Shown here: piece after piece, positions 36,309 to 58,467 of the stretch
Layout of the letters: each line of letters opens with the position of its first letter
How positions within the stretch are numbered: the first letter of the stretch is position 1
From: Lama guanicoe
Lineage: Eukaryota
Assembly (NCBI GenBank): GCA_013239625.1
Contig: MU055785.1
Coordinates: 7,130,001 to 7,194,000, forward strand
DNA length: 64,000 nt
Direction: 5' to 3'
The notes under the pieces: generated by a model
What the model saw: the letters and a program-made list of their open reading frames with translations, nothing else
What the model was told of the DNA's origin: nothing
The model's database searches: none
Made by a program: the position numbers and the translations under genes

Positions 36309-36443
36309 TCAGAGGATGACACAGGTCCAGTTCTCCTCCTCCGAGGCAGGGCGCCCTCCCTGGAGTGTAATGGGTCTTGGAGAGAATTCCCAGTGCTGAC
36401 CATCATCACAGGCCTCATGTGTCCAGTAACTGTCTTTTCTGGG
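36309..36443 (-). CDS. OAS1: OAS1 copy B terminal CaaX exon
   Basis: Acceptor cccttgcag| then [44 protein letters not shown]. Confidence 0.88.
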   Translation of the reverse strand, partial: PRKDSYWTHEACDDGQHWEFSPRPITLQGGRPASEEENWTCVIL

Positions 36444-55500: not shown

Positions 55501-58467
55501 TCACTCTTGTCCTGCTCTCTGTCCTCCTCCTCCTCTCTCCCTGTCTGGATAGGGCGGCCGTACCTCCTGGTACCAGTGCTTCACCAGGCGGATGAGGCTC
55601 TTCAGCTTGGTTGGACGGTCCCTCAGGAAGGCTCGCTGCAGCTCTGTGAAGCAGGGGGAGAACTCGCCCTCTTTCCCCAGGGACTCACACTCTTTAATGA
55701 GCTGAATGTAGACTTTAGGGTCGGGTCTGTAGCCTCTGGTCAACTGACCTGTTGGGAATGAATCCATAATGTGAAGATGTCAGCTTTGCTTGGAGGATCT
55801 TTCAGCCACCCCGGGGAGACAAGTTCACAGGCCCCGGGGTGCAGGGGAAAGGTCAGCAGGCCCAGAGCCAGGAGGCCTGAGGTCGACCCCCAGTCCTCCC
55901 TTCTCCCATCCCCATTGCTGTCACACTGACTGAGCCACCATCCTTCCTCACCTGGACACAGCAGAGATGGCAGCAGCCTCCTTTCTGGGTCTTCCACAGC
56001 CCATTCTCTTCCCAGCCCCCACAGAGGCCTCTCAAACTCTGATCATTCCACTTCTTGCTTCCCAGGTCATCTGAATACAATCCCAAGTCCTCACAGTAGC
56101 CTAGAGGTTTGGTGTGATCTGTCTCCTGCCACCTCCCGCCTCACCTCCTGTCTTCACCCCTTTGCCACTTACTCCTCTGGTTATTTCACGTTCTCAAATA
56201 TACCAAGTTCACTTCTGTCTCAGGGCCTTGCACTTGCTGTTTCCTCATCCTGGAACCCCTAGATCTTCCCATGGTTGGCTTCTTCTCATCCCTCAGGCCT
56301 TGGGTCAGATGTCTCTTTCCTTGTCACCCCATCTAAAAAAGTCGTCCAAGCCCCCACTGCTCTCTGTTGGATCCCTATGTTTAGCTTTCGTCACAGCAAG
56401 TTATCACTTATGGTGTTTACATTATTATTAGGCTCCAGGAGAAAGTTTCCTTGTCTGTCTCAATCATGGCCATAGAACGATGCCTCGCACATTGACTGCA
56501 CTTACTGGAAATTGAGTCTCAGACATGGATTACTTCCTGTCCAAATGTTCCTGCACATTATCTATCGATTCCAACCTTCAGCATATGTTTGATGAGGTTT
56601 TCTCATGTTTTGGATAAAATATGAAATTAACATATTGAGTTTACATCAGATCTAGGCTGCCTGATTCTTTTGGATTTATCTGTTCTTTTTTTAAATTGAA
56701 GTATAGTTTATTTACAATGTTGTGTTAGTTTCAGGTGTATAGCAGATTCAGTTATATATAAATATTCAATATTACAAGATATTGAATATGGTTCCCCGTG
56801 CTATTCAGTAAATCCTTGTTAGTCATCTGTTTTATATGCAGTAGGCTGCATCTGTTGCTGCCTCAGTTTTAGAAGATAAGATTCACACACTTTGCCATAA
56901 GTAGAACTAGTGAGCCTGGCAGGGTTTCTATAAGAAATGTCTCGCCCCAAACTGTACCAATTTGTTGTTTAATGTCGCTGTGGTGGCTGAGAAGGACCCT
57001 AGTCATTCTTGCCCTGGGACAGATGCTAAGATCTCCCCCACCATGCTGCAGGGATGCCCTGTTTCAACAGACTCTTGAACGGAGGCAGATTTCTGCTCAG
57101 AAACATGAAAAGAGGGAGAAGGAAGCCCCGACACAGGACAAAAGCTGAAACCCCTTATGGCCGGGAACACTCACCCAGGGCATCAAAGGCGGGCAGTACA
57201 TCGAACTCCACCCACTGGTCCAGCTGGGGGGATGTTAGCACAAAGCTGAGAGCTCGGGGATTCGCCCATTGCGAATTGTGGATCTCAAATTTCACTTTAA
57301 ATCGTTTCTCTCTGTGACAGGCTTCCAGCTGTCTCCTAATTTCCAAGATGAATTCTCCTCGGTGCAGAAGCTGCTCCTCAAAGCTTTTGAGATTGGTGAG
57401 GAAGACGACGAGGTCAGCATCTGACCGGCCTCTGAGGGTGGTGCCTTTGCCTGAGGAGCCTCCCTAAAACAGGTGATGAGAACGAGGACTAACATTTATT
57501 ACCGAGAAGAGCCTCCCTATGTAAAATGCTGAGAACAATCACTAACAGTTTTGAGTGCTAGCCACTGTTCTGAGGGCACTACCAGTCTTAACTCCTAGAA
57601 TGCTCACAGGGACTCTGTGATTTACCTACTATTACTCTTTGTTCCCATTTTACAGGTGGGAAAACAGATGCGGAGAGAGATTGTGTGTCAGCCCAACCAC
57701 ACAGCTAGTGGGTGGCAGAGATGCAATTCGCAAACTGGTTGCCTTTTTCGAGGGTCTGTGTTCTGTACCCCCTGTCCTTTTGATCCCATATTATTAATAC
57801 TATAGACTGGCCCATGCTGGGTGGGTGACATGCTATATTTTACTTAATCTGCAAGCCCTGTAAGCTACTGGGAATTGTGGCTGAGGAAACTGAGGCACAG
57901 AGAGGTTAAGTGAGTTGCTCGAGTTTTCACAGCCAGTAGGTGCTATCTGCTTCCAAAACTTTCAACAGCTCGGGACTCTGCAGAAATGGTGAGTCCCCAG
58001 CCTGGCCATTGATCAGCAGATGGTTGGCAGAGCCGGGCTTCGGGTTTCCTATGTCGGAAATGGACGGGACATAGGTGGTTGACAAGCTTCACCTGGGCAG
58101 TTGGTAAACACTTACAGGTGGAGGACCTCCCCCCAGGAGCTGTCTTCACGAGCTGTGGTTACATCTCTGGCCCAGATAAATCAGAAACCTCAGCCCCGGA
58201 GAACTCAACCTTTTGCTCTCTCTGTCTGTCTCTATGGAAATGCCTACTGGTTCAGCCACCTTGTCCCCGGCCGGGCAGTCCCGGGCTCACCTTCACCACT
58301 TTGGACACCCGCACAGGGTGTGCGGCCCCTCGGAAGCACCTCTCCTTCAGGAAAGAGCAGATGATGTCGACGGCTTCTCTGACCTGGGTGCGGAAAGGGC
58401 TGTCTGGCAGGAGGTTGTCTTCGATGAACTTGTCCAGTTGATTGGCTCGGGTATCTCTGAGCGCCAT
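52356..58467 (-). CDS. OAS1: 2'-5'-oligoadenylate synthetase 1, copy A (predicted 348 aa, no CaaX)
   Basis: Exons 58467-58291, 57463-57175, 55748-55564, 53461-53223 and 52512-52356, in frame with catalytic motifs intact. Exon 5 ends ...SAWKVQ followed directly by TGA (CAG-TGAGT in place of CAG|GTGAGT). Confidence 0.88.
53223..53461 (-). CDS. OAS1: OAS1 copy A exon 4
   Basis: [34 protein letters not shown]...QLGKPR, 239 nt. Confidence 0.92.
53520..54520 (+). mobile_element. LINE-1 ORF2 (RT region) fragment in OAS1-A intron 3
   Basis: Degenerate L1 ORF2 ([35 protein letters not shown]; tttgcagatgac = FADD motif). Confidence 0.85.
55059..55090. repeat. (GT)n microsatellite
   Basis: Uninterrupted gt run. 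Confidence 0.95.
55564..55748 (-). CDS. OAS1: OAS1 copy A exon 3
   Basis: Same translation as copy B exon 3. Confidence 0.92.
57175..57463 (-). CDS. OAS1: OAS1 copy A exon 2
   Basis: GGSSGKGT...DADL...[16 protein letters not shown]. Confidence 0.92.
58291..58467 (-). CDS. OAS1: OAS1 copy A exon 1
   Basis: Same translation as copy B exon 1. Confidence 0.92.

Follow-up and report, generated by a model that had tools for sequence, protein, structure and literature searches.

Tandem OAS1 paralogues in Lama guanicoe, one with and one without a predicted CaaX end

Introduction

The CaaX end of human OAS1 and the E-E-N motif preceding it target the enzyme to endomembranes and raise its activity against viruses replicating there, as described in the accessible part of PMC8357416. 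A distribution of CaaX and non-CaaX forms over several OAS1 paralogues has already been published for cattle and mouse, and the camelid pair described here is a further example of it, with no new mechanism. As far as the available portion of PMC7612834 goes, cattle carry three OAS1 paralogues, with a CaaX end in OAS1Y and none in OAS1X and OAS1Z, SARS-CoV-2 is blocked by OAS1Y and not by OAS1Z, and the CaaX end is found in three of the eight mouse Oas1 paralogues. The same portion of that paper reports a dromedary OAS1 construct active against SARS-CoV-2, and attributes the loss of the OAS1 CaaX end in horseshoe bats to an LTR insertion, in agreement with the available part of PMC10683996. A duplication of OAS1 in the pig is listed in the accessible part of PMC3658956.

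Camels, alpacas and llamas are hosts or models of MERS-CoV. According to the available part of the study by Eckhart and Sipos (PMC9964502), camelid OAS1 adjoins OASL, with OAS2 and OAS3 absent; this source gives one OAS1 per camelid and relies on fused gene models, while extra OAS1-like genes in Camelus ferus are mentioned in the accessible part of Liu et al. (PMC9854896). No description of a camelid CaaX/non-CaaX pair as such was found in the literature consulted; subscription papers or supplements may have one.

Results

Gene models and neighbouring genes

The window analysed here, the whole stretch of 64,000 nucleotides from a Lama guanicoe contig, holds two OAS1 genes in tandem on the minus strand, with copy A upstream of copy B, both intact, with open frames and canonical splice sites. 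An earlier note on this DNA had proposed two such genes and considered what would follow if the host were a camelid; the gene models bear out the former, and the host is indeed a camelid. OAS2 remnants carrying stops lie at 32270-32118 and 28167-28009 and OASL runs from 9227 downward, so that the order of A, B, OAS2 remnants and OASL fits the camelid arrangement of PMC9964502. The gene models are as follows.

58467-52356, minus strand: OAS1 copy A, read-through product of 348 aa from five exons
58291..58467, minus strand: copy A exon 1, ATG at 58467, identical to B exon 1 at 177/177
57175..57463, minus strand: copy A exon 2, with P-loop GGSSGKGT and catalytic D74, D76 and D147
55564..55748, minus strand: copy A exon 3, identical to B at 185/185
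53223..53461, minus strand: copy A exon 4, 5' end diverged, 3' half converted
52356..52512, minus strand: copy A exon 5, phase-2 donor CA/GTGAGT at 52360, read-through TGA at 52358-52356
46515-36309, minus strand: OAS1 copy B, six exons, 390 aa, C-terminus CVIL
46339..46515, minus strand: copy B exon 1 (gene model)
45223..45511, minus strand: copy B exon 2 (gene model)
41263..41447, minus strand: copy B exon 3 (gene model)
38607..38839, minus strand: copy B exon 4 (gene model)
37549..37702, minus strand: copy B exon 5, phase-0 donor CTG/GTGAGA
36309..36443, minus strand: copy B terminal exon, 44 aa, CaaX end

Both copies are also found among the database proteins of Camelus and Vicugna. The window proteins differ from those of alpaca RefSeq at 5 sites (A) and 3 sites (B), and from those of the dromedary at 30 and 33 sites, respectively, which makes the host a South American camelid. 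Alpaca RefSeq annotates two separate loci, one encoding 390 aa with CaaX, the other 374 and 348 aa without, and the alpaca counterparts of A and B both score above cut-off for the Pfam domains PF01909 (NTP_transf_2) and PF10421 (OAS1_C). Residues S62, D74, D76, D147, R194, K203, K212 and Q229, which we take to have catalytic or RNA-binding roles, match pig OAS1a in both copies.

The C-terminus of copy B

Splicing of B exon 5 to a CaaX terminal exon, as earlier proposed, agrees with the gene model, in which exon 5 joins 36443-36309 in phase 0 to give 390 aa. Copy B thereby has the features of a p46-type protein, a spliced terminal exon with a CaaX end plus an acidic motif, and the same is seen in alpaca RefSeq. 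Read-through of B exon 5 in the window translates to 396 aa without CaaX, a form annotated in the dromedary (KAB1255731), and a Bactrian database model of B, 374 aa, also lacks the CaaX end. As isoforms of B without CaaX are annotated (P0242, P0245), the separation of the two forms between the loci is not a clean one.

The C-terminus of copy A

The exon-5 donor of A had been described in the earlier note as altered, with read-through ending in SAWKVQ* at 348 aa. The alteration and the read-through product stand, but the donor is shifted and not lost: the missing base does no more than move it to phase 2 and leaves GTGAGT, a perfect intronic hexamer, in place. Transcripts of A are thus expected either to read through to the stop or to splice in phase 2. 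The latter donor is used in automated RefSeq models, namely the 374 aa isoform of the alpaca and an 821 aa model of the dromedary. In alpaca isoform X1 (XP_072809410.1, 374 aa), VQ is followed by SVCLMKD...ASTNL, exactly what joining of the phase-2 donor to an acceptor at 50768 yields; this defines the following exon.

50687..50768, minus strand: alternative terminal coding exon of A, ends in ...SPASTNL*, 374 aa, no CaaX, matches XP_072809410.1

This exon sits within an old interspersed repeat. The automated dromedary model XP_064337022.1 reads VH-LFAV, as expected if the phase-2 donor is joined to the counterpart of 46978, and alpaca XP_072809411/12 and dromedary KAB1255730 end at VQ with 348 aa. 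As judged from these sequences, the C-terminus of A is not confined to VQ*; a CaaX end was seen in none of the single-domain A database models compared.

An assembly error at the A donor is ruled out by the alpaca and dromedary proteins with the same VQ end and by sequencing runs: all 50 sampled words of 52000-52520 are contained in 3 of the 24 listed runs (2 samples from 2 studies), which are of unrecorded kind, one possibly deriving from the assembly's own sample. In 14 of the 24 runs, of which 4 are labelled as RNA and 10 are assumed to be RNA, a fraction of 0.22 of the words is present, about the share that exon 5 alone would contribute; this comparison by words does not enter the argument. 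A motif scan of metagenome contigs gave 0 matches to camelid DNA at the A donor, and a short-fragment search with A exon 5 returned 1 fragment, from an unrelated species. No AATAAA occurs in the first 2.7 kb past A exon 5.

The region downstream of copy A

The absence of a CaaX exon downstream of A, as claimed in the earlier note, is borne out by three kinds of search. The proposed tblastn comparison over 46600-52350, run with eight CaaX tails, gave noise only (best E 0.16); local DNA alignments of the region downstream of A against B intron 5 and exon 6 scored 28-32, with shuffle maxima of 33-40; and B was the sole match in a genome search with its terminal exon. On these results we reject a CaaX exon concealed in the DNA that separates the two genes. 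The segments concerned are the following.

48777..52350: 3' interval of copy A, containing old interspersed repeats and without detectable homology to intron 5 or the CaaX exon of B
48370..48777: flank homologous to 35362-35780, which lies 3' of the B CaaX exon, 73% identical
35362..35780: flank beyond the 3' end of B, homologue of 48370-48777; after it, at 35338-35181, a second decayed exon-2 remnant
47981..48405, minus strand: decayed OAS1-like exon-2 end and intron-2 start, tblastn E 0.008, score 245 vs shuffle maximum 48

The flank 3' of B has a homologue after A close to where the earlier note had placed it (48530-48770): 48777-48370 aligns with 35780-35362 at 296/406 identical positions, with a score of 337 against a shuffle maximum of 36, and it has no homology to OAS1 intron 1. 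The 3.6 kb separating A exon 5 from this shared flank likewise contain repeats, putatively L1/LTR-like according to the earlier note: old interspersed repeats with 41, 7 and 5 genome matches (self included) were found there, the one with 41 matches being located at 50640-51140. The missing G at the donor is not, as had been implied, the cause of the CaaX loss: A lacks the CaaX exon altogether, and A-type relatives in which the G is present also have no CaaX, with the exception of one hippo isoform (P0103) ending in the CaaX-like CVLS.

Patchwork identity of the two copies

Exons 1-3 of A and B are identical at 650 of 651 nucleotides, and the proteins at 318 of 346 aa, with a single difference within the first 217. 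The identity is a patchwork. A stretch of about 1.6 kb, starting in the 5' UTR and reaching into intron 2, is 97-100% identical, as are exon 3 and the 3' half of exon 4; the value is about 76% for the 3' flank, the distal promoter and intron 4.

56880..58520: gene-conversion tract, 5' UTR to intron 2 start, 97-100% identical to about 44925-46554, intron 1 included

Exons 1-3 have presumably been homogenised by gene conversion, as this pattern suggests. Concerted evolution of Oas1 paralogues in Artiodactyla is named in the title of a paper by Perelygin and colleagues from 2006 (PMID 17024523), and this is the pattern seen in the camelid pair. The three unconverted non-coding segments each show a divergence of 0.29 (JC) between A and B, equivalent to about 66 My at a neutral rate which we assume to be 2.2e-9 per site per year. 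In the promoters, an ISRE-like element of A carries a core C>T change relative to B, which has a second copy, so that the induction of the two genes may differ.

Phylogenetic relations

Protein trees were calculated from 34 of 36 chosen rows, the Muntiacus (351 aa) and Manis (356 aa) proteins having been dropped as the motif was not found in them; the hippo A-type row is the 354 aa protein and not the isoform ending in CVLS. In the best tree over the 83 columns formed by the start of exon 4 and by exon 5, the A proteins of the window and of the dromedary share a clade (98/94) with nine non-CaaX proteins of hippo, whales and ruminants, among them OAS1X and OAS1Z of cattle, those of goat and deer, three from whales and one from hippo. 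They have in common with A motifs where exon 4 begins and, in exon 5, W.LLAQE. Less in keeping with an early origin, the A clade does not include the two pig copies, which pair with each other, and the rhino pair of 348 and 396 aa looks separately derived. Exons 1-3 disagree with this tree and cluster by lineage, all five camelid rows falling together (100/99) and window A with window B (100/94); for these exons the AU test rejects an A-type clade (p-AU 4e-65).

Discussion

A probably old pair with putatively converted exons

The reading that we prefer, at a probability of roughly 80%, is that B, with its CaaX end, would be prenylated and bound to membranes, that A is likely cytosolic, and that both probably descend from an early cetartiodactyl pair whose exons 1-3 were kept alike by conversion. 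Copy A is likely an old paralogue, the counterpart of cattle OAS1X/Z and of the 348-355 aa proteins of whales and hippo, and we infer that B is the counterpart of cattle OAS1Y; the pair was probably inherited from an early cetartiodactyl duplication. On sequence grounds, the A-B duplication is older than the camelid radiation, given the divergence of 0.29 JC in three non-coding segments and the presence of both copies in Camelus and Vicugna. The course of events may have started with a tandem duplication of OAS1 in early cetartiodactyls, followed by the loss of the CaaX exon from A long before camelids diversified, while repeated gene conversion would have held the catalytic lobes of both copies alike. 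A later loss of one base at the end of A exon 5 would then have left A transcripts to read through (348 aa) or to splice in phase 2 into a repeat-borne exon (374 aa), neither product having a CaaX end.

It has to be asked whether the duplication could instead be camelid-specific, with the CaaX end lost from A in camelids through the one-base change and a repeat insertion. The lineage-wise grouping of exons 1-3 would agree with this, and a camelid-only clade of A and B is not rejected by the AU test over the 83 columns of exons 4 and 5 (p-AU 0.089). However, the non-coding divergence of 0.29 in the three segments far exceeds the distance between the window and Camelus in exons 1-3 (0.08-0.1 aa changes per column), and the best tree joins A to the ruminant, whale and hippo non-CaaX proteins (98/94), with which it has motifs in common; we therefore hold a camelid-specific origin to be extremely improbable. 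Copy A might also be a decaying or weakly expressed duplicate, its exons 1-3 being kept open passively by conversion from B. The C>T change in its ISRE-like element, a Cys in place of a conserved Trp in the last helix, the 5 sites at which it differs from alpaca A (3 for B from alpaca B) and the inactivity of cattle OAS1Z against SARS-CoV-2 (available part of PMC7612834) point in this direction. Decay nevertheless appears very unlikely. The unconverted parts, exon 5 and the start of exon 4, keep an open frame and can be aligned among the window, alpaca, three Camelus species, hippo, whales and ruminants, even though the non-coding DNA beside them has diverged by 0.29, and alpaca RefSeq lists three transcripts for A.

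A third reading regards A and B as partly one gene, in which A exon 5 would splice in phase 2 to an acceptor in the B 5' UTR and yield a two-domain CaaX OAS of about 740 aa replacing OAS2 and OAS3.

46516..46545, minus strand: candidate splice acceptor in the B 5' UTR, AG before 46525, in frame with the A phase-2 donor and the B ATG

A pyrimidine-rich stretch (15/20) precedes this AG and the frame is open to the B ATG ten bases on; RefSeq holds two-domain A+B models with CaaX of 755-821 aa in three Camelus species, the lack of AATAAA over the first 2.7 kb after A exon 5 would suit such a transcript, and OAS2 and OAS3 are lost in camelids according to the available part of PMC9964502. On the other hand, the four fused Camelus models have four different linkers, none of them the QSIV linker predicted here, and one of the four is flagged as low quality; like models occur in sheep, buffalo, humpback whale and rhino, the newest alpaca RefSeq keeps A and B apart, B has its own promoter with ISRE-like elements, and the dromedary linker exon is frameshifted in the window. 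The varied linkers, the fusions in other mammals and the split alpaca annotation together suggest an annotation artefact. On the window sequence, the linkers VQ-EAL, VQ-AL and VQ-PRL of three fused Camelus models would need a phase-0 donor, whereas phase 2 is required for P0122, and P0123 ends at VQ. Among 1358 AG sites between the A donor and 35000, five would lead in phase 2 to a CaaX-like end: 47115 and 46746, both with poor pyrimidine tracts, and 36438, 36429 and 36375, which lie within the B terminal exon. The A donor is out of frame with the normal terminal acceptor of B and in frame for a route from A exon 5 through B exon 5 into B exon 6; every route by way of B would have to remove introns of 14-16 kb, leaving out exons of B. 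A shared transcript of A and B is in our view very improbable, and the same degree of doubt applies to a locus making a cytosolic A, an anchored B and an anchored A-B fusion, with a two-domain prenylated OAS rebuilt after the loss of OAS2 and OAS3. The dromedary construct that blocks SARS-CoV-2 may be the 756 aa fused model: XM_031443284, the dromedary accession tested by Wickenhagen et al., is likely the mRNA of the 756 aa XP_031299144, as judged from the accession pattern and the listed dromedary OAS1. The camel sequence was not found in the available part of one supplementary file of that study.

Comparison with other systems

Returning to the reading of an old pair, the camelid locus resembles that of cattle in its tandem paralogues with a single CaaX copy, in the grouping of A with OAS1X/Z in the best exon 4/5 tree and in the OAS1Y-like terminal exon of B. 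It differs in having two copies instead of three, in the absence of OAS2, in B and OAS1Y forming no resolved clade, and in the end of A: the one-base loss makes A stop at VQ*, while the frame of the ruminant copies extends into the intron for a few residues. The mouse Oas1a-h genes likewise have CaaX and non-CaaX forms spread over loci, but represent an independent rodent expansion with more copies. The exon layout agrees with that of human OAS1, B corresponding to p46 with E-E-N before the CaaX end and A resembling the short p42; in contrast to the human gene, in which one acceptor SNP (rs10774671) governs both forms, camelids have two genes, of which B may still make both. In horseshoe bats, as in camelid A, repeat-derived DNA stands in place of the CaaX exon and a homologous flank is retained, yet the bats have lost the prenylated form altogether, while camelids keep B.

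Functional implications

Copy B is predicted to be endomembrane-targeted and A to be cytosolic. From what is established for OAS1, each protein would bind dsRNA, synthesise 2-5A and thereby switch on RNase L; B would reach the membrane-bound sites of viral replication, and A the free dsRNA of the cytosol. The proposal in the earlier note of a membrane-targeted and a cytosolic sensor encoded by two genes thus holds in so far as a CaaX copy stands beside a non-CaaX copy with apparently the same catalytic lobe, but the arrangement is neither special to this lineage nor clean. As camelids are without OAS2 and OAS3, A may, speculatively, cover the cytosolic role of these enzymes. The suggested bearing on MERS-CoV reservoir biology is weak, since the NS4b phosphodiesterase of this virus acts downstream of any OAS1, and thus of either enzyme (available part of PMC7612834).

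With OAS2 and OAS3 absent, A and B are the main predicted routes to RNase L in camelids, and an A-B fusion transcript, if true, would make the locus matter far more. Primers or short reads from exons 1-3 are unable to distinguish the copies, and separating A from B corrects the annotation and expression studies of camelids. The camelid pair adds the deepest branch to the cetartiodactyl pattern.

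OAS gene remnants around the two OAS1 copies

The interval between the CaaX-ending OAS1 copy (B) and OASL contains physical traces of the reported camelid loss of OAS2 and OAS3 (PMC9964502): remnants of two OAS2 exons, both of which contain stop codons, together with a weak remnant that is OAS3-like. In addition, the flank shared by B and the OAS1 copy without a CaaX box (A) is directly followed in each case by a decayed OAS1-like exon, suggesting that the duplicated unit already included a broken extra OAS piece.

48405-47981, OAS1-like exon-2 remnant
35338-35181, second OAS1-like exon-2 remnant
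33549-33391, OAS3-like remnant
32270-32118, OAS2 exon 1 remnant
28167-28009, OAS2 exon 3 remnant

Insertions and promoter elements

39484-40018 and 24243-24771, LTR-like repeat in two copies, opposite orientation, 76% identical
42050-43690, processed pseudogene in B intron 2, chromo shadow domain (Pfam PF01393, E 7e-24)
46586-46670, ISRE-like element of B, AGTTTCGTTTCC, plus a second variant copy
58556-58590, ISRE-like element of A, AGTTTTGTTTCC

Both LTR-like copies, one of which lies in B intron 3, contain CCAAT-like tandem units. The pseudogene, which resembles CBX3/HP1-gamma, carries an internal deletion and is absent from A intron 2. As judged from the core C>T change of the ISRE-like element of A relative to that of B, interferon induction of A may be weaker.

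OAS1 proteins of related species

None of the five pig and warthog OAS1 proteins checked (P0248, P0257, P0259, P0250, P0251) has a CaaX end, and the OAS1b-type proteins among them stop just before the position of the peccary CaaX. In RefSeq models from three Camelus species (P0005, P0006, P0122, P0241), A and B are joined as a single two-domain protein, and the dromedary construct active against SARS-CoV-2 (PMC7612834) may represent such a fused model.
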